Positions 5,806 to 64,000 of a stretch of 64,000 nt of DNA are shown one piece after another (the stretch's first letter is position 1; every line of letters starts with the position of its first letter). The translations under genes and the position numbers were made by a program. The notes under the pieces are model-generated. The model made no database searches. It saw only the letters and a program-made list of their open reading frames with translations, and was not told the origin of the DNA. The stretch is from Candidatus Gottesmanbacteria bacterium UBA6580 (GTDB taxonomy: Bacteria > Patescibacteriota > Microgenomatia > UBA10105 > UBA927), in the NCBI GenBank assembly GCA_002433895.1, contig DJJA01000003.1, positions 107,185-171,184 on the forward strand. The letters are read 5' to 3'.

Positions 5806-5915
5806 TTACTTCACTATAGCACACAAAACACAGCCGCCTCGACCGCTTGACAAGCTGAGGCTGGTTGTTTAGTATGTGGACAACTTATCCACAGACTGCT
5901 CTTTACCTCATAAAT

Positions 5916-7283: not shown

Positions 7284-7464
7284 TGTTTCCCACTTATCCA
7301 CATTTATCCGTAAATTATCCACATAGTATTCCACTTTTCCGCGCTCGTTTTCTTCCTAGTTATCCTCATTTTGTTTTATCGGTTTGTCTTGTTGTTGACA
7401 CACAAACTGAAAAAACATACACTTTTCCACGCGTAATTCTTATTACTACTTCTTTTATATCTAT
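7284..7464. promoter_or_regulatory. oriC: DnaA-box cluster plus AT-rich unwinding element between dnaA and dnaN
   Basis: TTATCCACA at 7294-7302 and 7315-7323, TTATCCGTA at 7304-7312, TTATCCTCA near 7349-7357; followed by an AT-rich tract 7370-7464 ending at the dnaN start. Confidence 0.75.
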
Positions 7465-27009: not shown

Positions 27010-27633
27010 ATGGACCTTATTGGTATGCTTGTTGTGGACGCGGTTGCATTTGGTCGTACCGTGGCGGGTTTAATTATCCGTCCGTACGAAACATATCGGC
27101 GCATCATTAAGCACGGGAAGGTTGGCGAGCTTGTTTTTATTGCGGCCGCGATGGTGCTGTATTTTAGCTTGGCAAGCCTTGTAAAGGTGGCTTCTTTCCG
27201 GCCGTTTTTGTTAACGCAGCAATTTACATTGCTGTTGTGGGCATCAGTAAGCGGGGCACTGCTTTCCGTCGGATGTATTTATGTAACTAGCCGGCTGCTT
27301 CGTGCGCGCACCACTTTTGCGACAGTGCTGATTGCGTGGTCTTACACGCTCATCCCGACTATTTTGTGGTTCCTCACGACATCACTGTTATACGTGATTT
27401 TACCGCCTCCCCGTACGACAAGCGCGCTTGGTATTACATTTAGCCTGCTGTTTTTGATATTTAGCGCGACCCTGTTATGGTGGAAAATAACTCTTTGTTA
27501 TCTCACGCTTCGGTTTAGTCTCAAACTTAATTTAGCAAAAAGCGTGCTGGTTGCGGTTCTATGCGCCCCCGTTCTTGCATGGTGGGCAGTGAATATGTAC
27601 CGATGGGGAGTATTTAAAGTGCCATTTTTATGA
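27010..27633 (+). CDS. polytopic membrane protein (Yip1-like)
   Basis: ATG at 27010 (MDLIGMLVVDAV); 5 hydrophobic helices; ATGA overlap with the HMG-CoA reductase start. Confidence 0.35.
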   Translation: MDLIGMLVVDAVAFGRTVAGLIIRPYETYRRIIKHGKVGELVFIAAAMVLYFSLASLVKVASFRPFLLTQQFTLLLWASVSGALLSVGCIYVTSRLLRARTTFATVLIAWSYTLIPTILWFLTTSLLYVILPPPRTTSALGITFSLLFLIFSATLLWWKITLCYLTLRFSLKLNLAKSVLVAVLCAPVLAWWAVNMYRWGVFKVPFL

Positions 27634-28790
27634 ACATACGGGATTATCAATCGGTGGCAAAACGGCGCGAGGCGGTGGCAAAAGAGCTATCCGTTCCGCT
27701 CGAACATATTGGTTCGTTTACGCTTGATGAAGTTGTTGCAAGCACGAAACATTGTGAAAACATGATAGGAATTGCCCAGGTGCCTATGGGGCTTGCCGGA
27801 CCGCTCACTCTTTTTACATCAGAGGGAACGCGCGTTACTCATTATGTGCCGCTTGCGACGACAGAAGCGGCGCTTGTGGCATCGGTAAGCCGTGGGTGCA
27901 AGGCGATTACCGCAAGCGGGGGAGCTACCGCAGATAGCCATAGAGTGGGAGCAACCCGCGGACCGGTTTTTAAGGTAAGGAATGTAGCAGAAAACAAAAA
28001 ATTACACGATTATTTGGAGCACAATATGCCGCGCCTCAAACAGGTGGCGGAAAAAACATCCGGTCACCTCACCCTCACAGGGGTGAGTTCCGAAGGGGTG
28101 GGACGTTACCGGTACGTGCGGTTTGTTTACGACACACAGGATGCGATGGGGTTAAATATGGTAACTATTGCGACCGACGCCGCTTCAAAGCTCATCGAAG
28201 AGGAAACCGGGGCCGAGTGTGTTGCGCTTTCAGGCAACTTTTGTGTAGACAAGAAACCGTCCTGGAAAAATTTTGTTGAGAACCGGGGCATTAAAGTATG
28301 GGCTGAAGTAGTGCTTACCGAATCCGTGCTCCGTGATGTGCTCAAGACTGACGCCAAACGCGTATATGAAACATGGCTTGCAAAGTGTATGTTGGGAAGC
28401 GCGATGAGCGGATCAATGGGGTTTAATGCACAATACGCTAATATTATAGCCGCTCTTTTTATTGCGACCGGTCAAGATCCCGCGCATACCGTCGAGGGAA
28501 GCGTGGGTATTACCACCGCAGAGGTGATAAACGGTGCCGACCTTTACGTGAGCATATACCTGCCGGATCTTATGGTTGGCACTATTGGTGGAGGCACTGG
28601 ATTAGCAACGCAGAAAGAGGCATTAGGAATTTTGGGGGTTACCGGGGGGACAGGTGGCGAACATGCGACCCGGTTTGCTGAAATTATCGGCGCCACGGTA
28701 CTCGCGGGAGAAATATCATTATTGAGTTCTTTGGAGCAGGGCACATTGGCGCGTGCGCACAGTAAGCTTGCGCGAGGAAAAATTATATGA
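27630..28790 (+). CDS. hmgA: hydroxymethylglutaryl-CoA reductase (class I-like)
   Basis: DAMGLNMVTIATD; catalytic region GTIGGGTGLATQKEALGILGV; ENRGIKVWAEV; about 386 aa soluble catalytic domain. Confidence 0.9.
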   Translation: MNIRDYQSVAKRREAVAKELSVPLEHIGSFTLDEVVASTKHCENMIGIAQVPMGLAGPLTLFTSEGTRVTHYVPLATTEAALVASVSRGCKAITASGGATADSHRVGATRGPVFKVRNVAENKKLHDYLEHNMPRLKQVAEKTSGHLTLTGVSSEGVGRYRYVRFVYDTQDAMGLNMVTIATDAASKLIEEETGAECVALSGNFCVDKKPSWKNFVENRGIKVWAEVVLTESVLRDVLKTDAKRVYETWLAKCMLGSAMSGSMGFNAQYANIIAALFIATGQDPAHTVEGSVGITTAEVINGADLYVSIYLPDLMVGTIGGGTGLATQKEALGILGVTGGTGGEHATRFAEIIGATVLAGEISLLSSLEQGTLARAHSKLARGKII

Positions 28791-29830
28791 TCGGTATCGT
28801 ATCCTATGGTTCATATATACCGCGTTGCCGTATTCCGATTGCGGATATCGCCCGCGCATGGAAAAAAGATGCTAAAGAAGTGGTCCATTCGTTGGGTCTT
28901 ACGGATAAATCAGTGCCCGCGTTTGATGAAGACGCCGCCACGATCGCAATCGAGTCAGCACTATCGTGTTTCGCGCCATTTCATGGCGATCCAACCGATA
29001 TCGACGTGTTATTTGTCGGGAGCGAGAGTCATCCGTACGCCGTTAATCCAACATCAACCATTGTCGGGGAGTTGTTAGGGTTGGGGAATGCCTATCTTGC
29101 CGCTGATTTGGAGTTTGCCTGTAAGGCGGGAACCGCTGCCATGCAGGCAATCGCCGGCTTAGTGGCTGCGGGGCACGCGAAATACGGACTGGCGATCGGC
29201 GCTGACACCGCACAGGGCAAGCCGCATGATTTTTTGGAGTATACGGCGGCAGCCGGAGGAGCTGCTTTTTTGTTGGGAAGTGACCATGTCGCCGCGCGTC
29301 TTTTGGCAGACACTTCCTATTCATCAGACACGCCTGATTTTTGGCGTAGGGATGGTATGCGCTATCCGTCACATGCAGGCAGATTTACGGGAGAGCCCGC
29401 GTATTACAGTCATGTTATGGGCGCCGCGTCACGATTATTTGAGATGACGGGCACAACCGCAGCCGATTACGATTACTGTATTTTTCATATGCCAAACGGC
29501 AAATTCCCGCGGGAGGTGGCAAAACGCCTGGGATTTTCCCGGGAGCAACTCGAGCCGTCACTGCTTGTTGATCATATTGGAAACGCTTATAGCGCAACGA
29601 CGATGTTGGCACTTTCCGCAGTGCTTGATATTGCCCGTGCTGGCCAAAAAATATTTATGGTTTCGTATGGCTCAGGGGCGGGGAGCGACGCGTTTGTATG
29701 GGAGACAACGAGTGAGCTAAATAAAATACAGCAAGTGAGGGAGAAAAAAACATTACGCGTCTCTGATGCCATTAGCAAAAAAACATACGTTGATTATATC
29801 CAGTTTTTAAAATTAACCCATAAATTATGA
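28787..29830 (+). CDS. hydroxymethylglutaryl-CoA synthase (archaeal-type)
   Basis: MIGIVSYGSYIPRCRIPIADIARAW N-terminus and Cys-containing thiolase-fold active-site region (EFACKAGTAAM); translationally coupled to the flanking genes. Confidence 0.85.
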   Translation: MIGIVSYGSYIPRCRIPIADIARAWKKDAKEVVHSLGLTDKSVPAFDEDAATIAIESALSCFAPFHGDPTDIDVLFVGSESHPYAVNPTSTIVGELLGLGNAYLAADLEFACKAGTAAMQAIAGLVAAGHAKYGLAIGADTAQGKPHDFLEYTAAAGGAAFLLGSDHVAARLLADTSYSSDTPDFWRRDGMRYPSHAGRFTGEPAYYSHVMGAASRLFEMTGTTAADYDYCIFHMPNGKFPREVAKRLGFSREQLEPSLLVDHIGNAYSATTMLALSAVLDIARAGQKIFMVSYGSGAGSDAFVWETTSELNKIQQVREKKTLRVSDAISKKTYVDYIQFLKLTHKL

Positions 29831-30966
29831 AAATTTTTGTAAACGGCGCCGCCACAACGCAGTTCGGTGAATTATGGGGCGTATCGCCCCGGTCACTGGC
29901 ACGCGGGTCTGTCTCGAGTGCGTTAAAAGATGCCCGTATTGAGAGCGCCCAGGTGGAGGCGTTGTTTGTGGGCAACATGCTTTCCGGAATGCTTGGTGGT
30001 CAGGAACATTTGGGAGCGTTTTTTGCCGAGGAACTCGGGTTACCGGTCCCGGCATTTAAAGTAGAAGGAGCTTGTGCATCAGGAGGGTTAGCACTTCATA
30101 ATGCGGTCAACAGTTTGCTTTCAGGCCAATACGCTACTGTGGTGGTATTGGGGATAGAAAAAATGACCGACCATAAACCGGAGGATGTAGCAACGGCGCT
30201 GATGGGAGCGGGGAGTGAGGAGGAGCGAAACGCCGGAGCGACGTTCCCGGGGCTATACGCCATTTTAGCCCGTATGCATATGAATGAATTTGGCACGACC
30301 GAGGAGCAGTTAGCAGCAGTCGCGGTCAAAAATCATTACCACGCAAGCTTAAATCCTAACGCCCAGTTTCATAATCTGCTTACCGTGGAGCAGGTAATGA
30401 GAAGCAGTAGGGTAGCAGATCCACTGAAGTTATTGGATTGCTCTCCAATTTCGGATGGCGCCGCCGCGGTGGTGTTGAGCACAAAAAACATAAAAGGCAG
30501 CGTTGAGGTTGCCGCGTCGGTGGTTGCGACCGACACCCTGGGGCTCGCGCAACGAGCTCACCTAACGCAGCTTACCGCAACGCAGCGCGCAGCAGAAAAA
30601 GCGTACCGCATTGCCGGTCTCACCGCAGGCCAGGTAAGTGTGGCAGAGGTGCATGATTGTTTTACGGTAGCTGAAGTGTTAGCGATGGAAGACTTAGGAT
30701 TTTTTCCGCGGGGGAAAGCGGCAGCGGCGATCGAAAAAGGGGAGACGAGGCTGGGAACGTCAGCGGGTATTGTGGTAAATCCGTCCGGAGGACTGAAGGG
30801 GTGCGGACATCCCGTGGGAGCCACCGGAGTAAAACAGGTTGTCGAGCTTGTGGATCAGCTGCGCGGATCCGCGGGGAAGCGGCAGGTAGAGAACGCGACC
30901 ATCGGACTTGCACATAATGTCGGAGGAAGCGGGGCAACCGCTGTTGTACATATTCTTAAAAAATAA
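29827..30966 (+). CDS. acetyl-CoA acetyltransferase (archaeal-type thiolase)
   Basis: Thiolase-like fold with VEGACASGGLALHNAVNSLLSG active-site Cys region and C-terminal GHPVGATG motif. Confidence 0.85.
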   Translation: MKIFVNGAATTQFGELWGVSPRSLARGSVSSALKDARIESAQVEALFVGNMLSGMLGGQEHLGAFFAEELGLPVPAFKVEGACASGGLALHNAVNSLLSGQYATVVVLGIEKMTDHKPEDVATALMGAGSEEERNAGATFPGLYAILARMHMNEFGTTEEQLAAVAVKNHYHASLNPNAQFHNLLTVEQVMRSSRVADPLKLLDCSPISDGAAAVVLSTKNIKGSVEVAASVVATDTLGLAQRAHLTQLTATQRAAEKAYRIAGLTAGQVSVAEVHDCFTVAEVLAMEDLGFFPRGKAAAAIEKGETRLGTSAGIVVNPSGGLKGCGHPVGATGVKQVVELVDQLRGSAGKRQVENATIGLAHNVGGSGATAVVHILKK

Positions 30967-30967
30967 T

Positions 30968-31270
30968 ATGCAATCACCGGTTAAAATTTGGCGGAACCAA
31001 AAAAATATCGCGAGCCTCGTGGGAAAAACGGGGAAGATATTGTCCTGGACAATTGTCCGTGTGCCGCCCGGGGATTTCACCGACCAGGCGCCGTATCCGG
31101 TGGTACTCGTCGAGTTGGAGAGCGGCAAACGGGTGACGTGTCAGCTGGTTGATTATGATGACGCCCATTTGACGTTTGGGCAGAGGGTGGTGACGATTAT
31201 CCGGCGCGTGACGCACCCTGATCCTGACGGCGTTATTCCCTACGGCATTAAAGCTAAACCATTGGTATGA
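30968..31270 (+). CDS. DUF35-family OB-fold protein (thiolase/HMGS complex partner), lacks Zn-ribbon
   Basis: 100-aa ORF starting 1 nt after the thiolase stop; ILSWTIVRVPP..YPVVLVELESGKRVTCQLVD resembles the OB-fold part of archaeal DUF35 scaffold proteins; no CxxC pairs are present. Confidence 0.6.
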   Translation: MQSPVKIWRNQKNIASLVGKTGKILSWTIVRVPPGDFTDQAPYPVVLVELESGKRVTCQLVDYDDAHLTFGQRVVTIIRRVTHPDPDGVIPYGIKAKPLV

Positions 31271-32217
31271 AAAAAGTAACCGTATCTGCTCCTGGCAAGC
31301 TTCATCTATCGGGCGAGCACGCCGTTGTGTATGGTAAACCGGCGTTAGTTGTTGCTACGTCGTTGCGGTTATACACCACATTAGAAACAGGAGCCGGTGC
31401 CACGTTGCTCCGTAAGATGCGCAAAAACGACCGGTATATCGAAGCCATATCGGCAGCGTTTGAAAAAAAATATGGAGCGTCAATTAAGGATGATGTGGGT
31501 ATCACGATTACTTCTTCAATCCCTATAGGAAGCGGCATGGGGTCATCGTCTGCGCTCGCGGTGTCTTTGTCGGGCGCGCTTTGTGTGTGGCATGGTATGC
31601 CGTGGAACCCTCAAGCCGTAAACGATATTGCGTACCAGGCAGAAAAGACAATATACAAAGGCAGTTCCGGAAGTGATCCTGCTGTCTCTACCCACGGCGG
31701 CATCCTATGGTATAGGAAAGAACTGGAGTTCTTGAAAACCCTGTGGCTGTTGCCCTTTAAAATTCCCAAAACATTTGCGCCGTTTGTGCTTATTAATACC
31801 GGAAGAAAAGAAAGCACGGGCGATTTAGTGGCGCACGTTGGTGAGGGAAAAAAGAGAGATGAGAAGAAATTTGCCGTCCTTTTGGACGCAGTGGAAAAGG
31901 TGACAAAACAAACCGCGCAATCAATTCACGATGAAGACGAGAAGGGTTTCCGCCGGTCAATTTCGGAAAATGAACAGTATCTCGAGGAAATGGGCATCGT
32001 GTCCGCACCTGTCCGGGCGTTTATCCGGGCGGTTGAGGAAGCAGGAGGGGTTGCAAAAATCAGCGGCGCCGGAGGGATACAAACAGGCTCCGGGGTGGTG
32101 GTCGCTATCCACGATACGGCACAGAAAATTATTGCTCTGGCAAAAAAGAGAAAATACGAGACATTCCAGGTGGTATTGGGCGGAGAGGGTGTAAAAATGG
32201 AGCAAGCAACAGCATGA
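31267..32217 (+). CDS. mevalonate kinase (GHMP kinase)
   Basis: N-terminal SAPGKLHLSGEHAVVYGKPALV and ATP-binding PIGSGMGSSSALAVS GHMP motif. Confidence 0.8.
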   Translation: MKKVTVSAPGKLHLSGEHAVVYGKPALVVATSLRLYTTLETGAGATLLRKMRKNDRYIEAISAAFEKKYGASIKDDVGITITSSIPIGSGMGSSSALAVSLSGALCVWHGMPWNPQAVNDIAYQAEKTIYKGSSGSDPAVSTHGGILWYRKELEFLKTLWLLPFKIPKTFAPFVLINTGRKESTGDLVAHVGEGKKRDEKKFAVLLDAVEKVTKQTAQSIHDEDEKGFRRSISENEQYLEEMGIVSAPVRAFIRAVEEAGGVAKISGAGGIQTGSGVVVAIHDTAQKIIALAKKRKYETFQVVLGGEGVKMEQATA

Positions 32218-33134
32218 AAAACGTAACCGTTACAGCGCCCGGCAAGCTGTTGTTGATGGGTGACCACGCAGTGGTATACGGCCGTCCATGCTTGGTCACC
32301 GCAGTAAGTGAGCGTATGAGCGTGTGTGTTGAGCAGTCTCCCGACGGGCAACTTCATTTTGACATGCCGGAACATGTGGATACCCGGTTTGTAAGCAGGG
32401 CGCTCGAGACGGCAAGAGCCCACTGGCGTTTACCCATTTCCGATATCACTATCCGTACGGCGAGCCAGTTTTCCGGCAATGTCGGTTTGGGTTCGTCCGC
32501 CGCCGTAACTGTGGGGATGATTGCCGCATTACGTGAGTATTTGGGGAAAAAAGACAGTCTTAAAACATTGTTCACGCTTTCTTACCGGACTATTTTGGAT
32601 GTTCAGGGAAAGGGATCGGGTTTTGATGCCGCAGCAGCGCTTTTTGGCGGAACGTTATATTTTGTGACCGCAGGAAAAACAATTGAACCATTGTCCGTCA
32701 ATAATATGCGGCTAATTGTCGGGTTTACCGGGGTCAAGGCAGATACCGTGACACTTGTGCGGGAGGTAGAAGAAAAAATGAAAGCGCAACCCGAGCGCGT
32801 TAATAGAATATACGACGCGATAGCAAAGCTTGTCGAAGAAGCGAAACCAAAGATGGTAGAAGGAGATTGGGAACGGGTGGGTAAACTTATGGATTTTAAT
32901 CAGGAATACTTGCGGGATCTGGGAGTAAGCTCTGAAAAACTAGAATCGCTGATCGCGGCTTCCAAAAAAGCGGGCGCATGGGGCGCGAAATTGTCAGGAG
33001 CGGGAGGCGGGGATTGCATGATTGCGCTTGTTTCTGACGATAAGCAGCCGGCAGTACAAGAAGCAATTACACAAGCTGGTGGACAAGTTATCCACATTTC
33101 ACCAAATGCGCAGGGAGCGAGGATTGAGCCATGA
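32214..33134 (+). CDS. second GHMP kinase (phosphomevalonate kinase candidate)
   Basis: TAPGKLLLMGDHAVVYGRPCLV and GLGSSAAVTVGMIAAL GHMP motif; located between mevalonate kinase and the decarboxylase. Confidence 0.6.
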   Translation: MKNVTVTAPGKLLLMGDHAVVYGRPCLVTAVSERMSVCVEQSPDGQLHFDMPEHVDTRFVSRALETARAHWRLPISDITIRTASQFSGNVGLGSSAAVTVGMIAALREYLGKKDSLKTLFTLSYRTILDVQGKGSGFDAAAALFGGTLYFVTAGKTIEPLSVNNMRLIVGFTGVKADTVTLVREVEEKMKAQPERVNRIYDAIAKLVEEAKPKMVEGDWERVGKLMDFNQEYLRDLGVSSEKLESLIAASKKAGAWGAKLSGAGGGDCMIALVSDDKQPAVQEAITQAGGQVIHISPNAQGARIEP

Positions 33135-34111
33135 AACAAACCGCCAAGGCACCGGCCAACATTGCGTTTATCAAATATTGGGGCAAATCTGATGCCGCTC
33201 TCCGGTTGCCGCTTAATGATTCCCTTTCCATGAATATGTCGGGAGCGTATACGGTTACCACCGTAGAGTTTTCCGTTGATTTTCATAAAGATGAGGTCGC
33301 GCTGCTCGGTGGGGAATTTTCGGACCACGAGGTGTTCCGCGTCATCGAAGGACTTAATAGGATCCGCGGGAGGGCAGGGGTAAAGCATTATGCGCGGGTG
33401 GTTACGAAAAACACCTTTCCCAAAGGTGCCGGATCTGCGGCCTCTGCTTCAGGATTTGCCGCGTTAACACTTGCGGGTTTTGCGTCGCTTGGATCACGCA
33501 TTCCGGAAAAAGAGCTCACGATATTTGCCAGGTTGGGAAGTGGGTCGGCATGCCGGAGTATACCGGACGGATTTGTCGTCTGGGAAAAGGGGAATGATAA
33601 CGAAACATCGTATGCACGCTCTCTTTTTCCATCAACGTATTGGGATATCCGTGATGTCCTTGTTATTGTGGATAAACGCATGAAAAAGGTGTCAACGACA
33701 GAGGGCATGGAAACGGTTACGACCAGCCCGCACCTTTCTTCGCGTCTTGCTGCGGTGCCACCACGTATGGCGGCTATACAACAGGCGATGAACGAGAAAA
33801 ATTTTGTCAGATTCGGAGAAATTACCGAGGAAGATTGCCTCGATATGCATCGGGTGATGCAGACACAGAATCCACCGCTTTTTTACTGGAATGAGGCGAC
33901 TGAACGCATCATGTCGGCGGTGAAGAGTTGGAGAAACGCGTCATTGCCCGTATACTTTACCATTGACGCGGGTCCCAACGTGCATTTGCTGTGCGAAGGG
34001 AAAGACGAAGCCCGGCTCCTTGAGATGATAAAGACGCTGCGGGGCGTTGAGGAGGTTATCTTGAATAAGCCGGCGGAAGGGGCGAAGATTATTAGCGAAC
34101 ACTTGTTTTAA
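33131..34111 (+). CDS. mvaD: diphosphomevalonate decarboxylase
   Basis: APANIAFIKYWGK N-terminus, GSGSACRS motif, GHMP fold. Confidence 0.85.
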   Translation: MKQTAKAPANIAFIKYWGKSDAALRLPLNDSLSMNMSGAYTVTTVEFSVDFHKDEVALLGGEFSDHEVFRVIEGLNRIRGRAGVKHYARVVTKNTFPKGAGSAASASGFAALTLAGFASLGSRIPEKELTIFARLGSGSACRSIPDGFVVWEKGNDNETSYARSLFPSTYWDIRDVLVIVDKRMKKVSTTEGMETVTTSPHLSSRLAAVPPRMAAIQQAMNEKNFVRFGEITEEDCLDMHRVMQTQNPPLFYWNEATERIMSAVKSWRNASLPVYFTIDAGPNVHLLCEGKDEARLLEMIKTLRGVEEVILNKPAEGAKIISEHLF

Positions 34112-34117
34112 CATGTT

Positions 34118-34801
34118 ATGAAATCAGGCAACATACCAGCGCATATCGCAATTATTATGGACGGTAACCGCAGGTGGGCACGTGAGCACAATTTGCAGGT
34201 GCTTGCAGGGCACCAGAAGGTTGCTGATGAGGTGTTGGAGCCGCTTGTCGAACATGCCGCGGCGAGAGGAGTGAAATACATTACTTTTTGGGCTTTTTCG
34301 ACTGAAAATTGGATGCGTGAGCCGAAGGAAGTAGAGGGGATTATGTCGATATTCCGTCACACTATCCGAAAACGCTGGCAGCGGTTGCACGAAAAAGGAG
34401 TCCGTGTTCGGGTGATCGGGGATATTTCTAAATTTGCGCCAGATATCAGGAAGGCGTTGGAAGATGTGATGCAGCAAACCGAACACAACACAAAAATTAC
34501 GGCAATATTCGCACTTAACTATGGCGGAAGGGATGAGTTGGTCCGCGCTGTCCGGCAATTTGCCGATTGTGGGCACGTGAGCGAACATGATATTTCTGAC
34601 GCGCTGGATACAAAGGGTATTCCCGATCCCGACCTTATCATCCGCACGAGCGGTGAGCAGCGGCTAAGCGGGTTTTTGCCTTGGCAGGGCGTATATAGCG
34701 AGCTATATTTTCCGTCGTGGCACATGCCGGACTTTACTCCGCAAAAGCTAGACAAAGCATTGGCAGAGTACGGCAAAAGGAAACGAAGATTCGGGAAGTG
34801 A
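34118..34801 (+). CDS. uppS: undecaprenyl diphosphate synthase (cis-prenyltransferase)
   Basis: HIAIIMDGNRRWA, ITFWAFSTENW, and C-terminal RTSGEQRLSGFLPWQ motifs. Confidence 0.9.
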   Translation: MKSGNIPAHIAIIMDGNRRWAREHNLQVLAGHQKVADEVLEPLVEHAAARGVKYITFWAFSTENWMREPKEVEGIMSIFRHTIRKRWQRLHEKGVRVRVIGDISKFAPDIRKALEDVMQQTEHNTKITAIFALNYGGRDELVRAVRQFADCGHVSEHDISDALDTKGIPDPDLIIRTSGEQRLSGFLPWQGVYSELYFPSWHMPDFTPQKLDKALAEYGKRKRRFGK

Positions 34802-34803
34802 TA

Positions 34804-35154
34804 TTACTGGAAGATTTGCCCGATGGAGGTTTCCCACCCCAAAACCACACCGAGGATCTGGACAATCCAAAATGCTCCAAAAATGAGGATAAATCCCACA
34901 ATGGAGTTGGTAAGCGTCATTCTGCCCTGTGCTAATTTTTTTGCATCTCCGGCACTCGTCATGATGGAAAATCCGCTGCTGATGATCATGAGAAGCAATC
35001 CTATTCCTGCTGCCGCAAAAATATAGGGGAGTGCCTGGCCGACGATGACGCCGATTGTGGCGTCGCCAAAATTAAAGTTAACCGGTCCTTCAATGGATAC
35101 ATTGGAGCCACCGTTTCCTTCGATATTAACTACTTGGGCAAGGAGTGTGCGCAT
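34804..35154 (-). CDS. T4SS pilin-like protein, paralog 7
   Basis: 116 aa; SGFSIMTSAGDAKKLAQGRMTLTNSIVGFILIFGAFWIV core shared with the 23.9-26.1 kb array. Confidence 0.55.
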   Translation of the reverse strand: MRTLLAQVVNIEGNGGSNVSIEGPVNFNFGDATIGVIVGQALPYIFAAAGIGLLLMIISSGFSIMTSAGDAKKLAQGRMTLTNSIVGFILIFGAFWIVQILGVVLGWETSIGQIFQ

Positions 35155-40234: not shown

Positions 40235-40690
40235 ATGAAGATAGTAAACAAAAAAGCATTGTTTGATTACCAAATCCTCGATCGGTTAGAGGCAGGAGTG
40301 AGCCTCACTGGAGCCGAGGTAAAGTCGTTGCGCAGCGGTCACGCGAAGCTCGACGGTTCATTTGTGCGTATTATCGGTACGGAAGCGTACCTTATCAACG
40401 CACAGATATTTCCCTATACCTACGCCAGTCCGCCAGCTGGCGGAGGAACCTATGACCCAAAGCGCACACGGAAGCTACTGTTTCACCGGAAAGAGCTCGT
40501 AAGCCTAAAAAGCAAGATAGATGGCGCTAATTTGACCCTTATTCCTCTGAGCTGGTATACTAAAGGCCCCTTTGTGAAGCTCGAAGTAGGACTTGCCAGA
40601 GGCAAGAAACAATACGAAAAACGGGAGAAAATGCGTCAGGATGTGCAAAAAAGAGAGCTTGAGCGGGACTTCCGGGGGAAAGTGAAATAG
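40235..40690 (+). CDS. smpB: SsrA-binding protein
   Basis: MKIVNKKALFDYQILDRLEAGVSLTGAEVKSLR ... LVSLKSKI; canonical SmpB. Confidence 0.9.
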   Translation: MKIVNKKALFDYQILDRLEAGVSLTGAEVKSLRSGHAKLDGSFVRIIGTEAYLINAQIFPYTYASPPAGGGTYDPKRTRKLLFHRKELVSLKSKIDGANLTLIPLSWYTKGPFVKLEVGLARGKKQYEKREKMRQDVQKRELERDFRGKVK

Positions 40691-41107
40691 GGGATGCATC
40701 AGATCGACGATGCGGGCACGTTAAAAAACAGCAAGCCGGCGATGACAAAAGAGCCGCAAAAATTATTGTCAATTATAATTGCTAATACACTTAGCGAGCT
40801 TGAGGAAAAGTACGCCTACCTTGTAGAACGGCTTATGCTCAAGCGATCACAGTCAGCTTACGCTTACGCGTACGCCAACTAAGATCCATCCCGATTATTC
40901 TTTCGTCTGGTGAGGATTTTTGGGGTGTAAACAAAGCCAGGCCGTCAGGTTACTCATGATCGGGAGTAACCGGAGTATTATTTCGATCAACCCTCTAGAA
41001 AAGTATTTGTCCGCTTTTTTCTTTTCTAGAGAACTAAACGGACTACGCTTGTAGAAGTTTTTGATGTACTCCTTCGGACCCGGGCTCAACACCCGGCATC
41101 TCCACCC
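40690..41107 (+). ncRNA. ssrA: transfer-messenger RNA (ssrA)
   Basis: 5' GGGGATGCATCAGATCGACGATGCGGG resembles the E. coli tmRNA 5' end GGGGCUGAUUCUGGAUUCGACGGG; 3' end TCGGACCCGGGCTCAACACCCGGCATCTCCACCCA gives a T-arm (CCGGG/CTCAACA/CCCGG) and an acceptor strand CATCTCC pairing with GGGGATG including a G3:U70 wobble, discriminator A; a GCCGCAAAAA element about 65 nt from the 5' end as in E. coli; begins at the last nt of the smpB stop codon. Confidence 0.75.
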
Positions 41108-41868: not shown

Positions 41869-42537
41869 ATGAACAATAGATTATCCGGACAATCCAAAGT
41901 GATCGCGATAGTAGCTGGTGGAGTGATACACAACGGACAACGGAAGGCTATCCGCGCGTCAGATGTCGTTATCGGGGTTGACCGCGGGGCGCTGTGGCTG
42001 GTGCGGCGGGGAATACCTCCTGATATCGCCATAGGCGATTTTGATTCGGTAACGGTCGTGGAAAAAAAACGTATTCACGACATATCCCGCGTGTACATTG
42101 AGTACCTGCCACACAAAGACGTGACGGATCTCGAACTTGCTATAGAAGAGGCAATTCGGCTGCGGGCGAAGGAAGTGCGCATATTTGGGGCATTAGGAAG
42201 GCGGTTTGATCACGCAATGGCAGCAACACAGTTATTGGGGAGGCTAGAGTCGCACAATATTTATGGAATAATTGTGGATAACTTTAATAAAATACATATT
42301 GTGCGTCGTCAATTGACCTTGCCAAAGACGCATGACCTCCGGTACGTTTCGGTAATTCCTCTGCATACACAGGCAACGGTTAGTCTCTCGGGATTTGCCT
42401 ATGATGTGTCGCGCAGAACATTTCATTCTGGTTCTACTTTGGGTATTAGTAACGAAATAGTCGCCAGGTTTGCGACGATCACCGTTCATTCAGGGAAGGT
42501 TTTAATCATTCAAAGCAATGATGTACCGGTTAGGTGA
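41869..42537 (+). CDS. thiamine pyrophosphokinase
   Basis: VIAIVAGG..VIGVDRGALWL..PDIAIGDFDSV (GDFDS motif) and KDVTDLELA. Confidence 0.7.
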   Translation: MNNRLSGQSKVIAIVAGGVIHNGQRKAIRASDVVIGVDRGALWLVRRGIPPDIAIGDFDSVTVVEKKRIHDISRVYIEYLPHKDVTDLELAIEEAIRLRAKEVRIFGALGRRFDHAMAATQLLGRLESHNIYGIIVDNFNKIHIVRRQLTLPKTHDLRYVSVIPLHTQATVSLSGFAYDVSRRTFHSGSTLGISNEIVARFATITVHSGKVLIIQSNDVPVR

Positions 42538-42569
42538 CCCACCGGTTTCTTGGTATAATGACGCGTACG

Positions 42570-42660
42570 GGAGGAGTCGCATAGCCCGGTCCATTGCGAG
42601 GGTTTGCTAAACCCTTGAGCCGATGAGGCTCGCGTGGGTTCGAATCCCACCTCCTCCGCC
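42570..42660 (+). tRNA. tRNA-Ser(GCU)
   Basis: Acceptor GGAGGAG/CTCCTCC, discriminator G, anticodon stem AGGGT/ACCCT with loop TTGCTAA, long variable arm, T-loop GGTTCGAATCC. Confidence 0.85.
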
Positions 42661-42682
42661 GGGTTTTACATGGTGTGTATTT

Positions 42683-42769
42683 GGAAGGGTCGCATAGTGG
42701 ACTAGTGCACTTGTCTTGAAAACAAGCGTCGGCGCAAGCTGACCGTGGGTTCGAATCCCACCCCTTCCG
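42683..42769 (+). tRNA. tRNA-Ser(UGA)
   Basis: Acceptor GGAAGGG/CCCTTCC, anticodon stem CTTGT/ACAAG with loop CTTGAAA, long variable arm, T-loop GGTTCGAATCC. Confidence 0.85.
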
Positions 42770-42843
42770 CTCGAAGAGAGGCCTTGTCTCCTTTGCGTGA
42801 GGGTTGTAGGAAATGGATAATACGAGGGGTTGTTGCAGAGACA

Positions 42844-42928
42844 GGAGAGGTCGCATAGTGGCCTAGTGCAGAAGTTTACTAAACTTCCGTATCGCAAGAT
42901 ACCGTGGGTTCAAATCCCACCCTCTCCG
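42844..42928 (+). tRNA. Ser-type (class II) tRNA with apparent ACU anticodon
   Basis: Acceptor GGAGAGG/CCTCTCC, discriminator G, long variable hairpin GTATCGCAAGATAC, T-loop GGTTCAAATCC; anticodon stem GAAGT/ACTTC encloses loop TTACTAA, i.e. A34-C35-U36. Confidence 0.65.
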
Positions 42929-42951
42929 CTGATACATACGCGAAGCAGGAG

Positions 42952-44259
42952 CTATCTCCATGGGTACAACCACGTCAGGCTGGTGGCGATTGTGTGCCCC
43001 ACGCGGTTAAACGCCGGAGCAGTGGTATCCGGAAACGCGACTTCATCCTCGGTATATCGCCGCGCTTTAAACAGAAAGTTAATCGGGAAGGCTCCGCTCA
43101 TTTTTGTGGTAAACGGGCTGATGATATCCCAAACGATTTCTTTTTCCGGTGTTACTTCAAATATGTGTCCCCGGGGGCCATCGGTGATAAGTACGTTCCC
43201 GTTGGGAAGCTGTTGTGCCCCGCCGACCAGCGGTCCATAGAAAGCGAGCTTATCCATCACACCCGGCCCTCCGTCAAAAGTCCATGTGACGGTGTTGGTT
43301 TTGGGGTCTATCACTACGACGCGGCTGCCGTATAACGGTATGGGTGACGGGGTTCGGGTGAATCCATTGTCAAATACCATAATAGCACCGTTCGGAAGCA
43401 CGCTTGGATCATGTTGGGTGTTTAGTATTCCTTTCGGTGAACGCCATATTATTTCCCCATCCCGCTTCCGTATAAGTATGACGGTGTTTATGGACCGTAT
43501 GCTCACAAGATATGCCTCTTCTCCATCGATTGGATTTTCCGGAACGTGGCTTATGCCGTTAATATACGTCCAACCCGAGCGGGATAGCGATTGGTCAATG
43601 ATATCTATGGCAGGACGTAGGTGTTCGTGCGCGTGCCAACTCCACACAGTGTTTCCGGCGGGGTCCAGCTCTATTATTTCGTCGGACCATATATCACCCT
43701 TGAGTTCCGTACCAGGAATCCCCCCACGGATTTCCTGTGCAATAGAGCGTGGCAGTTTTTCCCAGCTCGCAAAGGCAATGTTGCCGTTTTGTAAAACCGC
43801 TACATCGTGGTGTGCGGATTCATGAACTATTTCCCGTACTACCCGGGAACTCCAATCAAGCTCTTGAATAACGCCGGTGTTGCCTCCGCCGGGATACATC
43901 TCAGAATACCGGGGAGCCTCCATAGCGACGAGAAGGTGATTATTAGGCAATAGTTGGGCGGATAACACTTGGCGGTCAGTAGTCCAAGAGTGGACTGGCC
44001 GGCCAAGCATATCGGTAAGATATACAGCGCCCTTGTTTTTTGCGTCGGCATTCAGCGCGTTATTATATGGCGCAATGAGCGTATAACCAGCGGAGACACG
44101 GTCAGGGTTGCGGATTGCCGGAGTGTGAAAAATGCTCACGGGAGCTATATACGGCCGTACGATAAAAGCATATATGCCTATATATGCAGCGGCCATGACG
44201 ATAAGGATGGTGAGCGGGCGATTTTTCCGCATGAAAAAGATAAATACTTCATTTATCAT
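42952..44259 (-). CDS. membrane-anchored beta-propeller protein, arylsulfotransferase (ASST)-like
   Basis: N-terminal TM; repeated hydrophobic beta-strand motifs; HESAHHDVAVLQNGNI resembles the His-rich ASST active-site region; weak call. Confidence 0.35.
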   Translation of the reverse strand: MINEVFIFFMRKNRPLTILIVMAAAYIGIYAFIVRPYIAPVSIFHTPAIRNPDRVSAGYTLIAPYNNALNADAKNKGAVYLTDMLGRPVHSWTTDRQVLSAQLLPNNHLLVAMEAPRYSEMYPGGGNTGVIQELDWSSRVVREIVHESAHHDVAVLQNGNIAFASWEKLPRSIAQEIRGGIPGTELKGDIWSDEIIELDPAGNTVWSWHAHEHLRPAIDIIDQSLSRSGWTYINGISHVPENPIDGEEAYLVSIRSINTVILIRKRDGEIIWRSPKGILNTQHDPSVLPNGAIMVFDNGFTRTPSPIPLYGSRVVVIDPKTNTVTWTFDGGPGVMDKLAFYGPLVGGAQQLPNGNVLITDGPRGHIFEVTPEKEIVWDIISPFTTKMSGAFPINFLFKARRYTEDEVAFPDTTAPAFNRVGHTIATSLTWLYPWR

Positions 44260-44313
44260 ACTGCGTCCTAACCAGAACGCAAATTATGAATAGGCCCTCT
44301 TTTTTATGTGTTG

Positions 44314-45981
44314 TTAATAATGAAACAGCCGTTGTTGTTGTTCCGGGGTTGGCAGAGGAAGGGATTCGGCCGTGTTTTGTGGGTATGATAAGGTTCGGCC
44401 GTTGTTAAACTTGTGGTGGATTTGTTTGAGATACCACACGACAAAAGGGTGTTTGTCTGCGACATTTGTGGTGTCCCATGGATCATTGATGACGTCGTAC
44501 AATTCAATATCCGATGATGAAGTGCCGTCGAGTGACCGTAGGTACATTTTCCAACGCGAAGTGGTGATTGCTCTTTGACGTAACGGCACCGAAGCATTTT
44601 TTGGGTTAAAAGAGTTGTAATATTCTGATATGACCGGCCGAAAAAGCCGTAAGGTTGGCAGCCCCATAACGGCGTCCGAGAGATCCTGTCCCTCAAGCGA
44701 CCGGATGTTCGGTAAACCCAAGAGGCCGACAATTGTGGGATATATGTCAATTATTCCTACTGGTTGGTGAATAACTTTCGGATGTACCTGAGGAACGGAT
44801 AGTATGAGCGGGACGCGAAGCACTCCGCCATAAAGTGACCGGTGCATAAGATCACCGTGCTCCATGAATTCTTCACCGTGATCGGAAGTAATGATAAGGA
44901 TAGTGTCATGCGAAAGCATCGGCTGTAATTGTGCGAGAATATCCGATAGTTGGGTGTCGAGCTGAAAAATTAACTCATCATATAGCGCCTTCATGTACGC
45001 GACATCCTGCGGATTATCTTTTTGTTGGGTATAAAAATATTCGGCTTCCAGACAGTAGTTTTTGCAGTCGCCGCTTGTTAAATCGTTATACAGCCGGCGC
45101 GCGGTTTCATAGTCATCTGTGGCCATATACTTTGAAAAAAGAGATGAAAGATTTTGTGTCATGGGAGGGTTCTGACGGAAAAATCGTTTTGTAAACTCCA
45201 TAAACTCAGGAGTGAAGCTAAAGTATTCGTCTTTTGTCACCGGAATTTTTTGACTACTGTCATTACTGAAGTGGAAGGGCCGAGTTCCAGGTAGGTATGG
45301 TTGGTGGACATAATAGGTGTGGAGAAAAAGAAAAGTCGGTTCACCTTTTTTTCGATTTTCATCCAGTTTATCTATTCCTCTTTTCCAATTATCGAGCCCG
45401 TATTCCCGTTCGTAGTCATATTCGGCATCAATATAGGTAAATCCACGGGCAAAGCCCCTGTTGAGCGGAAGATATTCGCTATCAATAGGTCCGTAGTATA
45501 GCGTAGCGTATCCGGCATTTTTTAGTGTTTCGGCAAGCGTAACACTGGATTGGGGAAGCTGAGAAGTCCCCGCTTCTAGCATGCCGTGGGTAGAAGGATA
45601 TTGTGAAGTGAAAAGGGACATATGGCTAGGTAGGGTGAAATAGCTTTGTGAACTTGCATTGGTAAAGTAGGTATTGCGTTTTGCAAACCCACAAAGGTTC
45701 GGCGCGGTATTTTTCGGGTATCCATAGCAGGGCAGGTGTAAGCCGGATAATGTGTCGAGGGATATGACGACGACATTACAGCGGTCACAAATAGGGGCGC
45801 GAAGCACTTTTTTCTTTAGGGATGCAGGAAGCGCCGTTAGTGTAAGCGCAATGAGGGTTGTGCAAACTACTCCGGTGGCAATCAGGGCGATGAGGCGGAG
45901 GCGTGACCACTTGGTCGTAATGTGTTTTTTCTTTTTTACGGGCATAATGGCAGTGTAGGAGTAGCGTGTGGTGGCTGTCAA
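44314..45981 (-). CDS. sulfatase-family (alkaline-phosphatase superfamily) hydrolase/transferase, membrane-anchored, Thr at nucleophile position
   Basis: N-terminal TM; CNVVVISLDTLSGLHLPCYGY metal-binding start; SQSYFTLPSHMSLFTSQYP aligns to the sulfatase C-T-P-S-R-x-S-L-L-T-G-R-Y-P signature with T for C/S and H for R; C-terminal ILIITSDHGEEF. Confidence 0.7.
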   Translation of the reverse strand: MTATTRYSYTAIMPVKKKKHITTKWSRLRLIALIATGVVCTTLIALTLTALPASLKKKVLRAPICDRCNVVVISLDTLSGLHLPCYGYPKNTAPNLCGFAKRNTYFTNASSQSYFTLPSHMSLFTSQYPSTHGMLEAGTSQLPQSSVTLAETLKNAGYATLYYGPIDSEYLPLNRGFARGFTYIDAEYDYEREYGLDNWKRGIDKLDENRKKGEPTFLFLHTYYVHQPYLPGTRPFHFSNDSSQKIPVTKDEYFSFTPEFMEFTKRFFRQNPPMTQNLSSLFSKYMATDDYETARRLYNDLTSGDCKNYCLEAEYFYTQQKDNPQDVAYMKALYDELIFQLDTQLSDILAQLQPMLSHDTILIITSDHGEEFMEHGDLMHRSLYGGVLRVPLILSVPQVHPKVIHQPVGIIDIYPTIVGLLGLPNIRSLEGQDLSDAVMGLPTLRLFRPVISEYYNSFNPKNASVPLRQRAITTSRWKMYLRSLDGTSSSDIELYDVINDPWDTTNVADKHPFVVWYLKQIHHKFNNGRTLSYPQNTAESLPLPTPEQQQRLFHY

Positions 45982-46756: not shown

Positions 46757-46828
46757 GCGCCCATAGTTCAATGGATAGAATAGGAGCTTGCGGAGCTTCT
46801 GATACAGGTTCGACTCCTGTTGGGCGTA
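46757..46828 (+). tRNA. tRNA-Arg(GCG) (anticodon assignment tentative)
   Basis: Acceptor GCGCCCA/TGGGCGT (G1:U72), D-arm GTTCAATGGATAGAAT, anticodon stem GGAGC/GCTTC (one G:U) with loop TTGCGGA, T-arm ACAGG TTCGACT CCTGT, discriminator A; 72 nt. Confidence 0.65.
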
Positions 46829-46835
46829 CAAGAAT

Positions 46836-61279: not shown

Positions 61280-61444
61280 ATTTCCTCTCTTTTTTGCATA
61301 AAAAAACGACCCCTTAGGTGCAAGGCCGTTATGGTTTTTGATCGAGGACGGGAGCGATCCCCGTTGTATGTGCTCCCTTTACGAGAAAAACAGTGAACTC
61401 ATGTAATGTACATTACTAAATAATGGTACGCGGCGCAAGTGGTT

Positions 61445-61789
61445 TTATATCTGAGTTCTGACCGTGAGGAACACGAGGCTTTCATCATCGGTATTTTTGA
61501 CGCTATGTGCATGAGAAGGGGGAACGGTGACGAAATCACCGGCGGTTACGTCAAACCAATCATTGCCGACAAGCATCTGCCCTTTTCCTTCCAGAAAGAA
61601 ATAAAACTCTTCCCCGTCAGCGTGTTCGTGTGGGGTGAGTTGCCTACCCGGTTCGAGCCACGCATAGTTCATTGTCGCTACATTGCCCTGATGGTGTCCA
61701 TGCGGCGGGACAAGGCGTTTCACTTGCGTTGTTCCCTCATGGGTGGTTTCTGTTGGGATGGTATCAATATTTTTAATAGGATGAGTCAT
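61445..61789 (-). CDS. cupin-domain protein
   Basis: 114 aa; HEHADGEEFYFFLEGKG ... GDFVTVPPSHAHSV (cupin motifs 1 and 2 with His ligands). Confidence 0.6.
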   Translation of the reverse strand: MTHPIKNIDTIPTETTHEGTTQVKRLVPPHGHHQGNVATMNYAWLEPGRQLTPHEHADGEEFYFFLEGKGQMLVGNDWFDVTAGDFVTVPPSHAHSVKNTDDESLVFLTVRTQI

Positions 61790-61975
61790 ATAGACTGCCG
61801 CTATCGCGTTATGCGTGAAAGCGGATATTGCCTTACCGTTATAATTATTTACGGTAATTATGTTTTGTATATATGCGCGTATTATATCCTATCCCGCCTA
61901 AGGCTATGCAGCGGTTTGGATACATATACGTATTGCTTGCTGCGGAGCGATCATATTCATAGAATGAGATAACAC

Positions 61976-63466
61976 ATGTTTAATAATTTCCTGCGATACG
62001 CTTGTTTATTTATTATTACCGCGGTTGTCGCAGGGTTCATCATTGTAGGGCAAAAAGAGCACCGTATAGAGTGTAAAAAATGTAACGTTATATTTATTTC
62101 ACTCGATCAGGTCCGTGCAAAAAGCCTGCCGTGTTTTGGATATACAAAAGATACGATGCCTAATCTTTGCCGGTTTGCGGCGAACTCAAGAATTTTTTCC
62201 CGTGCCTATGCTACCGCGGCCCGTACGATGGATAGCCATTTTTCTATGATGACCTCTCTGTATCCGAGCGCCCATACGATGAATCTACCTTACAGTAGTG
62301 TGTTGCCAAACGATATTCCGACCCTCGCGCAACTCATGAAGGAAGGGGGATACCGGACGTATTTTTTGGGACCAACCACCGATCCCCATTTACCGCTTAC
62401 CCATGGGATGGAGCGGGGATTTGACGAGATTTTTGAGGCGGATGAGCCCCGTATATGGACAGAAACGCTTGACGTGGTCGCAACATTATCCGGCCGGTTG
62501 GACAAGCCATCTTTCTTTTTTATGCACACTTATCTCGCGCACGAGCCATATATGCCGGCAAACGAACATGTGCGGTTGTTTCATGACGGACCCGACAGAA
62601 AGCGAATGACGTTTGAGGACTTATGCAGGTTTACCTACCTTAAACTGAGATCGCTGCATCCGGATGCTGTTTTCCGGTTAACCGGAGACGCTTACGCATA
62701 TTGCGAACGTCTTGATTCGTATCAGAGCGCATCCCAATCGTACGAAATATTTGATGATGGCTATACGATTTTTAACGACGAGTATTGGCGGCAATTTGAC
62801 GAGTTGCCACAAGCGGAAAAGGGTGAATACACCCACGCGTTATATGCCGCAACACTTTTTGAGCTGGATATTCAACTTGGAGAATTTTTCGAAGGCCTGA
62901 AACAGAAAGGAATGCTGGAAAATACTGTCATAGTAATTGTGGGAGATCAGGGTGATGAATTTTTTGAACATGGCGCTTACTCACACGGATGGTCATTATA
63001 TAACGAGGTATTGCGCGTTCCGTTTATTGTGTATGTCCCGGGATATCCGTCCGGCCGGTCAGACAAACTGGTCTCGCTTGTCGATGTCATGCCCACTATT
63101 TTGGGCATTACCGGGAAAAAAATACCGGCAAATATTTCAGGCTTCGATGTGTTTTCCGGGCGAACTCATCCTTTGGTTATCGCCGAGCACCTCAATGGTG
63201 GGCCATTAAGTGTACGGACAGACCGGCATAGCCTCATGGTGTACGACACCGATCTGGAAACAGAAATCGAGTTATACGATATAAATGTTGATCCTGATGA
63301 ACGAACGAATATCGCGGAGGGAAACCGGTCACTCGTGCAACGCTTACTGAAAGCGTATAAGAAATTAAAGTCAGCATTTCCTGAATATTCGCGCGCGTCG
63401 TATCCGCTACCCACCTGGATTAACGAACAGGACCGGCAAAAGCTTATTGAGAGCGGATATTTTTAG
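61976..63466 (+). CDS. sulfatase-family hydrolase/transferase, membrane-anchored, Thr at nucleophile position (paralog of 44314-45981)
   Basis: N-terminal TM; CNVIFISLDQVRAKSLPCFGY; TAARTMDSHFSMMTSLYP aligns to the sulfatase signature with T for C/S and H for R; IVIVGDQGDEFFEHGAYSHG. Confidence 0.7.
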   Translation: MFNNFLRYACLFIITAVVAGFIIVGQKEHRIECKKCNVIFISLDQVRAKSLPCFGYTKDTMPNLCRFAANSRIFSRAYATAARTMDSHFSMMTSLYPSAHTMNLPYSSVLPNDIPTLAQLMKEGGYRTYFLGPTTDPHLPLTHGMERGFDEIFEADEPRIWTETLDVVATLSGRLDKPSFFFMHTYLAHEPYMPANEHVRLFHDGPDRKRMTFEDLCRFTYLKLRSLHPDAVFRLTGDAYAYCERLDSYQSASQSYEIFDDGYTIFNDEYWRQFDELPQAEKGEYTHALYAATLFELDIQLGEFFEGLKQKGMLENTVIVIVGDQGDEFFEHGAYSHGWSLYNEVLRVPFIVYVPGYPSGRSDKLVSLVDVMPTILGITGKKIPANISGFDVFSGRTHPLVIAEHLNGGPLSVRTDRHSLMVYDTDLETEIELYDINVDPDERTNIAEGNRSLVQRLLKAYKKLKSAFPEYSRASYPLPTWINEQDRQKLIESGYF

Positions 63467-64000
63467 CGCTGCCACGAAGGGTACTGTAGCGGGATATCGT
63501 CAGGTGATACGACAGGTGTTCCCTGAAAAAGTAATGCAGTTGCGTTTTTGATAAGTGTATTCCCCAAAATAATAAGTGATTGCGGTGATGCTGGATCGAT
63601 TGACAACGCAGTTTCGTTTTGGGTAAGCGTGTTACGGGCGATAACGGAGTTGTTATGGCGGCTAGCATGCGCAGCGGGATCTGTGTCGGCATCTCCAGCG
63701 CCGCTTTCCAGCGCAATACCCACAAGAGAGTTTGCCGCGGTGTTTGCGTAAAAGATATTATCGGTTGCAGGCATTTGGCGGGTAAATGCAAGGAACGCAG
63801 AACCCGTATTGTTTATCGACTGGTTGTGAACGACTTTTATACCGCTGGCGTTACTGATAAACACGCCCATACCAAAACCATTGCGTTTGTCCCGCGCCTC
63901 GACACAATAGGACCAGCCTTGAGTATCCCGGAGCGTATTATTTTTAATAAATGTATCTGAAAACTGCCCTCCGAATATTTTTAGTGCTGCACATCCAGAT
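63463..64000 (-). CDS. right-handed parallel beta-helix repeat protein (NosD/pectate-lyase-like), 5' end beyond the window
   Basis: C-terminal 135 aa show repeated N-x-[ILV]-x-x-N-x-x beta-helix rungs (NNSVIARNTLTQNETALSI, LGNTLIKNATALLF); the ORF continues past the window edge. Confidence 0.4.
   Translation of the reverse strand, partial: SGCAALKIFGGQFSDTFIKNNTLRDTQGWSYCVEARDKRNGFGMGVFISNASGIKVVHNQSINNTGSAFLAFTRQMPATDNIFYANTAANSLVGIALESGAGDADTDPAAHASRHNNSVIARNTLTQNETALSIDPASPQSLIILGNTLIKNATALLFQGTPVVSPDDIPLQYPSWQR

Follow-up and report, generated by a model that had tools for sequence, protein, structure and literature searches.

Does a bacterial serine tRNA gene whose anticodon starts with a genome-encoded adenosine encode a functional tRNA, and if so, which codons does it read? 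In the 64,000-nucleotide stretch of Candidatus Gottesmanbacteria bacterium UBA6580 analysed here (the window), this question is raised by the third gene of a tandem serine tRNA cluster, for which a preliminary description had read the anticodon as ACU. In a survey of tRNA genes, ANN anticodons in split boxes (except Ile), including A34 in the Ser/Arg box, are described as universally missing (PMC8007984), and a 2026 preprint frames the universal absence of seven split-box ANN tRNAs as ancient purifying selection (10.64898/2026.05.15.725136). CPR is not among the phyla listed for the survey, and the text of the preprint contains no match for "CPR" or "Patescibacteria".

The tRNA-Ser(ACU) gene and its genomic context

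The feature is confirmed as an intact class II bacterial tRNA-Ser with a genome-encoded A34. ARAGORN, which had been proposed as a check, calls a tRNA-Ser(act) at 42844-42929 on the forward strand with the anticodon at tRNA position 35, i.e. at 42878-42880 of the window, and the Rfam model RF00005 matches 42844-42928 with a score of 52.9 bits (gathering score 29; E 1.6e-08 over the whole window). Both the RF00005 alignment and ARAGORN assign UUACUAA (42876-42882) to the 7-nt anticodon loop with A34-C35-U36 as the anticodon, in agreement with the preliminary description, and no alternative fold or shifted stem presenting a standard anticodon, which had been raised as a way to refute this reading, was found. 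The gene comprises 85 nt up to the discriminator G73, CCA is not encoded, and the predicted fold of its strand is a cloverleaf that includes a variable-arm hairpin (-33.5 kcal/mol, z-score -4.76); none of 200 shuffled sequences is as stable.

The acceptor stem has 7 bp, including G1-C72, G2-C71 and A3-U70, and is followed by G73; the D stem consists of G10-C25, C11-G24, A12-U23 and a wobble pair U13-G22; the anticodon stem is GAAGU/ACUUC; the variable arm forms a 5-bp stem (GUAUC/GAUAC) with the loop GCAA; and the T arm is canonical (GUGGG-UUCAAAU-CCCAC). The features on which the Ser assignment had been based, namely G73, the long variable hairpin and the D stem, can indeed be read from the sequence. 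Across all five serine tRNAs of the window, G1, G2, A3, U70, C71, C72 and G73 are invariant, and the same columns are also invariant in alignments with the serine tRNAs of relatives. SerRS recognises its substrates by their long variable arm, by G73 and by the acceptor pairs, and the anticodon plays no part in this. Since these identity elements are all present, tRNA-Ser(ACU) is most likely charged by SerRS.

ARAGORN reports seven tRNA genes in the window, two for Arg (GCG, CCG) and five for Ser (GCU, UGA, ACU, CGA, GGA), the latter exactly as counted before. The gene order is smpB, tmRNA, a comF-like gene, the thiamin pyrophosphokinase (TPK) gene and the cluster Ser(GCU)-Ser(UGA)-Ser(ACU), followed by Arg(GCG), Ser(CGA), Arg(CCG) and Ser(GGA). 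The TPK gene (41869..42537, forward strand; Pfam TPK_catalytic and TPK_B1_binding) lies directly upstream of the cluster and served as synteny anchor. The cluster starts with tRNA-Ser(GCU), the ordinary AGY reader (42570..42660, forward strand; ARAGORN), whose start lies 274 nt upstream of tRNA-Ser(ACU) and thus matches the distance of about 270 nt given previously. It continues with tRNA-Ser(UGA) (42683..42770, forward strand; ARAGORN), which in the alignment is the closest paralogue of tRNA-Ser(ACU) in the window (76% identity). tRNA-Arg(GCG) is located at 46757..46829 on the forward strand (ARAGORN). A promoter and terminator scan around the cluster returned no informative sites. Two ORFs antisense to the three tRNA genes, at 42530-42856 (108 aa) and 42607-42897 (96 aa) on the reverse strand, are almost certainly spurious.

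Several further features of the window were noted. The tmRNA gene right after smpB (40690-41107, forward strand) scores 109 bits with Rfam; ARAGORN made no tmRNA call in the window, yet called that of another locus (L014). dnaA and dnaN at 5865-8571 (forward strand) coincide with the minimum of the cumulative GC skew, and the replication origin probably lies within the window. The window also harbors T4SS-like pilin and ATPase genes and genes of the mevalonate-pathway type (GHMP kinase, mevalonate-diphosphate-decarboxylase-like and prenyltransferase genes), the latter identified via the syntenic loci. Downstream of the tRNA cluster, at 42952-45981 on the reverse strand, arylsulfotransferase-like and sulfatase genes are present in the window and its 98% relatives; at the same site, L002 encodes two unrelated ORFs without Pfam match and other relatives have yet other genes, indicating a variable island. 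The Pfam scan covered the 38 of 55 window ORFs that lie outside 27630-35154 and 61439-63870 (17 ORFs); neither deaminases nor SerRS were detected among the 38 ORFs scanned.

Conservation, covariation and origin of the ACU family

The ACU anticodon is one substitution away from GCU, and both loops are otherwise identical. The gene could therefore have arisen recently from tRNA-Ser(GCU) by a G34A mutation, be a pseudogene, or reflect a sequencing or assembly error, as had partly been suggested before. To address this, we collected syntenic loci via contigs encoding TPK homologues. The window is part of the chromosome of a CPR bacterium of the Microgenomates type; relatives with a name are MAGs assigned to "Candidatus Gottesmanbacteria" or "Patescibacteria group", and several carriers of tRNA-Ser(ACU) lie on contigs of 0.9-1.2 Mb. 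The gene was found in L001-L005 and L007 (TPK 98% and 77% identical), L008 (63%), L011 (63%) and L030 (54%). It is 100% identical in the window, L002, L008, L011 and L023, whereas TPK identity is only 63-77%. The arrangement GCU-UGA-ACU is common to the window and its relatives, and the spacer between the UGA and ACU genes diverges from 73 nt in the window and L004 to 3 nt in L002 while the tRNA is still identical. L030, which was obtained by synteny alone, has another acceptor stem and the anticodon stem ACGGU/ACCGU around the same loop UUACUAA. The equivalent stretch of L012, L013 and L031 lacks the gene in that stretch, and the contigs of L009 and L029 terminate at tRNA-Ser(UGA). In L008, tRNA-Ser(UGA) is directly followed by 14 nt from the 5' end of the ACU tRNA (GGAGAGGTCGCATA; 10906-10920), with the full copy about 85 nt further on; the fragment looks like the leftover of an insertion or partial duplication.

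The family was then found to extend well beyond these relatives. We scanned one genome per GTDB species with the pattern GCAGAAGTTTNNNAAACTTCCGT, in which the anticodon was left free (NNN). This yielded 14 loci, comprising nine full tRNA-Ser(ACT) genes, one gene cut at a contig end and four chance matches without a tRNA; every real match carried ACT. A looser pattern, again with NNN as anticodon, was applied to metagenomes and revealed at least 27 further unique tRNA-Ser(ACT) sequences, besides GCU, CGA, UGU and UGA tRNAs of other kinds. Together with the loci found by synteny, this amounts to at least 39 unique ACU sequences in at least 46 loci. With the anticodon free in both scans, all listed members of this tRNA body family have ACT. 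That loop positions 32, 33, 37 and 38 and two stem pairs do not vary in the scanned sequences, on the other hand, is imposed by the scan patterns; for these loop positions, only the synteny-derived L030 is an independent observation. Among the at least 39 sequences, G1, G2, A3, the U-C-C of the 3' acceptor strand and G73 are all invariant.

The stems of the family covary. In nine distinct sequences, all cells of the 24 cloverleaf pairs are paired (100%) and six pairs have changed on both sides (19 cells); none of 500 shuffles reached the observed score, and slid controls dropped to 40-60% pairing. Seven variants of the anticodon stem occur across the at least 39 sequences, all of them perfectly complementary, and the variable-arm stems of the orthologues have 4-6 bp with compensatory changes. 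Conservation of the family, invariance of its ACU anticodon and covariation of its stems are thus directly observed, and the gene is under purifying selection throughout the clade.

From the identity of the gene in independent assemblies of several species, and from orthologues that keep ACU with compensated stems, we conclude that tRNA-Ser(ACU) is neither an error nor a pseudogene. The intact pairs (24 of 24 in the nine distinct sequences) and the identity of the gene across species while its spacers diverge led us to reject the pseudogene, and the recurrence of the same gene in independent assemblies disposes of a G34A sequencing error. A recurrent G34A origin from tRNA-Ser(GCU) was likewise rejected, as all ACU sequences group in one clade and their body resembles that of UGA tRNAs more closely (76% identity in the window, compared to 71% for the GCU tRNA). 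Overall, we consider an explanation by decay, recent mutation or error to be extremely improbable.

Two loci of the genome scan, L014 and L016, have records titled "uncultured Gammaproteobacteria" or "Pseudomonadales", but their SpoIID-NHL-SmpB-ComF gene order is that of the window, with 30-46% identity between the proteins. From this CPR-type synteny at such low identity we conclude that the ACU family spans a deep divergence and that these taxonomic labels are unreliable. The same kind of record title is also found on L020, L021 and L024-L027. A further tRNA-Ser(ACU) lies in a contig classed as viral (L152, IMG/VR UViG_3300032046_005581; 483-567, reverse strand) within an array Pro-Ser(ACU)-Asn-Leu-Leu that adjoins PNKP-phosphatase and RlaP RNA-repair genes. 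This contig could stem from a phage that infects a CPR host, or could be a fragment that was misclassified; in its tRNA-Ser(ACU), the topmost position of the anticodon stem is an A-A mismatch.

Within the ACU family (at least 39 sequences), mean identity is 0.80, compared to 0.56-0.62 to other serine tRNAs of the same loci. In a neighbor-joining tree, the ACU sequences form one clade that also holds a single CGA tRNA, a clustering which is partly favoured by the search patterns. One node above, the clade additionally includes eight UGA tRNAs and one GGA tRNA, which makes UGA tRNAs eight of the ten non-ACU members. In L098, a tRNA-Ser(CGA) at 1670 and the tRNA-Ser(ACU) at 4430 have nearly one body, with the same acceptor, anticodon stem and T arm, which suggests concerted evolution or anticodon switching among serine isoacceptors. 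Since the ACU body is nearest to UGA tRNAs and is shared with the CGA tRNA in L098, we conclude that this old family of single origin arose by duplication inside the serine tRNA cluster, with isoacceptor bodies presumably being exchanged or anticodons switched.

Codon meaning and the state of A34

If A34 were converted to inosine, the tRNA could reach AGA in addition to AGU and AGC, and the meaning of AGA is therefore central to the function of tRNA-Ser(ACU). The window uses 6.1 AGA, 5.5 AGG, 7.3 AGU and 13.9 AGC per 1000 codons. We aligned the window ORFs to the syntenic loci and, for 18 other carriers, their ORFs to every locus collected. In comparison with five relatives, 14-21 of 22-28 AGA codons of the window face Arg (often CGN), followed by Lys, and none faces Ser. 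For the 18 other carriers, the alignments include 2587 AGA codons, of which 48% face Arg (CGN 33%, AGR 14%), 16% Lys and 4.7% Ser, a profile like that of CGA, while the profile of AGU resembles that of UCU. AGG behaves like AGA in that both align with CGN, AGR and Lys codons at CGN-like rates, Ser being at background. In addition, AGA reaches 25-33 per 1000 codons in several ACU carriers. From the alignment profiles and the AGA frequency we conclude that AGA encodes arginine and AGU serine, without reassignment. A look at AGA versus CGN usage had been proposed as a check, and AGA proves to be a major Arg codon in several carriers, used at up to 33 per 1000.

These data bear directly on whether AGA or AGR might have been reassigned to Ser, as they are in the code of invertebrate mitochondria, an idea that the presence of a serine tRNA whose anticodon, if modified, could reach AGA might bring to mind. 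The codon alignments led us to reject such a reassignment of AGA for the window and the 18 other carriers. In the passages considered here of a screen of 250,000 genomes, AGG, CGA and CGG are the only sense codons named as newly reassigned in bacteria, and a change of AGA/AGG to Ser comes up for mitochondria alone (PMC8629427). We regard the chance of a reassignment as close to nil.

The reading that we favour, and hold to be probably correct, is that tRNA-Ser(ACU) is a genuine, functional elongator that reads AGU, presumably with an unmodified A34. SerRS would serylate the tRNA via the variable arm, G73 and the acceptor pairs, and the serine codon AGU would be read through an A34:U Watson-Crick pair; tRNA-Ser(GCU) would keep AGC and, by wobble, AGU, while A34 would most likely be left unmodified and AGA and AGG would remain arginine codons. 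tRNA-Ser(GCU) accompanies tRNA-Ser(ACU) in 29 of the 46 loci listed. In E. coli, an orthogonal M. jannaschii tRNA that carries ACU as its anticodon stays free of inosine and decodes AGU with a U:C discrimination of at least 95:5, AGA being below detection and AGG at 0.36% (PMC11066159). Overexpression of Ser-tRNA(ACU) in E. coli was not harmful and was fitness neutral or beneficial (10.64898/2026.05.15.725136). An unmodified AGU reader had also been considered in the preliminary description, which called it redundant. The unmodified AGU reader is the reading that survives, while "redundant" undersells the gene, because clade-wide purifying selection shows that it matters.

The main competitor of an unmodified A34 is its deamination to inosine, for instance by a TadA-family enzyme retargeted from tRNA-Arg(ACG), so that ICU would read AGU, AGC and AGA and some Ser would be inserted at AGA, as had been proposed earlier. 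Positions 33-38 of the ACU loop differ from those of E. coli tRNA-Arg(ACG) only at position 36. The bacterial TadA recognition loop is U33-A34-C35-G36, and it is precisely G36 that is replaced by U in tRNA-Ser(ACU), which makes the deamination mechanism unlikely, in line with the lack of modification by E. coli TadA of the ACU-anticodon tRNA mentioned above (PMC11066159). A34 tRNAs across life generally co-occur with A34 deaminases (PMC8007984), and E. coli is reported to convert an engineered split-box tRNA-Phe(AAA) to I34 (preprint 10.64898/2026.05.15.725136), both of which would speak for deamination. Codon boxes and tRNA sets of the ACU carriers speak against it. While I34 is expected where U-, C- and A-ending codons share one amino acid, AGA occupies Arg/Lys positions, clearly encodes Arg and is frequent in carriers. 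A G34 isoacceptor is usually absent from a box with an A34/I34 tRNA, and yet tRNA-Ser(GCU) is kept here, although ICU would make it redundant.

The gene content was considered as well. In most bacteria, tRNA-Arg(ACG) is found where this lineage has tRNA-Arg(GCG). tRNA-Arg(GCG) is present in 19 of the 46 ACU-bearing loci listed and tRNA-Arg(ACG) in none of them (0 of 46), and among 443 tRNAs over all loci collected, the only anticodons starting with A are those of Ser(ACU) (46) and of Arg(ACG) (three, in unrelated loci). A tblastn search with E. coli TadA found no homologue in the window or the ACU-bearing loci, which represent a small part of each genome; matches occurred solely in unrelated loci, the one in L057 looking like an FCY1-type cytosine deaminase. 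In six unrelated metagenome loci of about 70% GC (L081, L109, L053, L151, L104 and L038), tRNA-Ser(GCU) and tRNA-Arg(GCG) are encoded near a TadA-like gene, which is 34-37% identical to E. coli TadA. Since tRNA-Arg(GCG) and a TadA-like gene coexist in these loci, GCG is only a weak proxy for TadA loss.

Taken together, we consider deamination of A34, with some low-level insertion of Ser at AGA through ICU, to be unlikely; serylation, the decoding of AGU and the absence of deamination are inferred. A related and slightly less probable scenario is that an A34-modifying enzyme, either of the TadA family or new, was retargeted to or kept for tRNA-Ser(ACU) after the change from Arg(ACG) to Arg(GCG), in which case the mature anticodon would be ICU or contain a new A34 derivative. 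If true, this would imply either a natural Ser/Arg ambiguity at AGA or a new wobble modification enforcing U-only reading in a split box.

As a point against the favoured reading, AGU is not enriched in carriers, either compared to other two-fold boxes or compared to non-carriers, its share of AGY being 0.35 in the window versus 0.40 in the non-carrier L012. Carriers without a shift in AGU usage could be taken to mean that the serylated tRNA acts mainly outside decoding, for instance by supplying serine to cell-wall or other tRNA-dependent transferases, or in a regulatory or decoy role, and reviews have proposed non-canonical roles for "missing" tRNAs (PMC8007984). Nevertheless, ACU is invariant in at least 39 distinct sequences while the stems covary. 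A pure donor would let the anticodon drift because SerRS ignores it. Moreover, T loop and T stem are canonical, and no Fem/MurM-type or other tRNA-dependent transferase was found by Pfam among the 38 window ORFs scanned. We therefore judge a main role outside decoding to be improbable, more so than a modified A34, and retain the decoding of AGU as the preferred function.

Relation to known systems and meaning of the exception

Among the closest known systems is the ordinary bacterial tRNA-Ser(GCU), with which tRNA-Ser(ACU) has in common its class II body, G73, the GGA/UCC acceptor ends, the loop U32-U33-N34-C35-U36-A37-A38, the codon box and the gene cluster. tRNA-Ser(ACU) differs from it by A34 instead of G34 and by a body closer to the UGA isoacceptor, and would read AGU alone rather than AGC and AGU. 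With tRNA-Arg(ACG), which TadA converts to tRNA-Arg(ICG), it shares the A34-C35 start and nearly the same loop, but it has U36 instead of G36 and Ser instead of Arg identity, and the NNA codon of its box, AGA, stands for another amino acid. Furthermore, in contrast to the tRNA-Arg(ACG)/TadA system, the lineage uses tRNA-Arg(GCG), and the window and the ACU-bearing loci yielded no TadA.

Genome-encoded A34 in bacteria is also known from Mycoplasma tRNA-Thr(AGU) and from Leu(AAG) and Thr(AGU) of some Firmicutes (PMC8007984). In the Mycoplasma tRNA, A34 is read as unmodified A, according to a study cited in PMC11066159. These tRNAs belong to four-fold boxes, in which misreading is synonymous, whereas tRNA-Ser(ACU) belongs to the split Ser/Arg box. 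The engineered tRNAs with the anticodon ACU in E. coli (PMC11066159; 10.64898/2026.05.15.725136) are laboratory constructs, in contrast to the natural, ancient and conserved gene described here. In the literature searched, we found neither a natural tRNA-Ser(ACU) nor a survey of CPR tRNAs or TadA, though such records may exist in tRNA databases or other papers.

From these results we conclude that tRNA-Ser(ACU) is a clade-wide exception in Patescibacteria to the rule that A34 is missing from split boxes, of which we found no earlier report. For annotation, this means that tRNA-Ser(ACT) calls in CPR MAGs should not be dropped as pseudogenes or errors. Kept with compensated stems across a deep clade of Patescibacteria, the tRNA is a natural counter-example to the A34 rule. 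It becomes testable why A34 is normally avoided, be it due to off-target deamination, superwobble misreading or another reason, whether the loss of tRNA-Arg(ACG)/TadA lifts the constraint on A34, and what specificity an unmodified A34 attains when it decodes a split box in a living cell.
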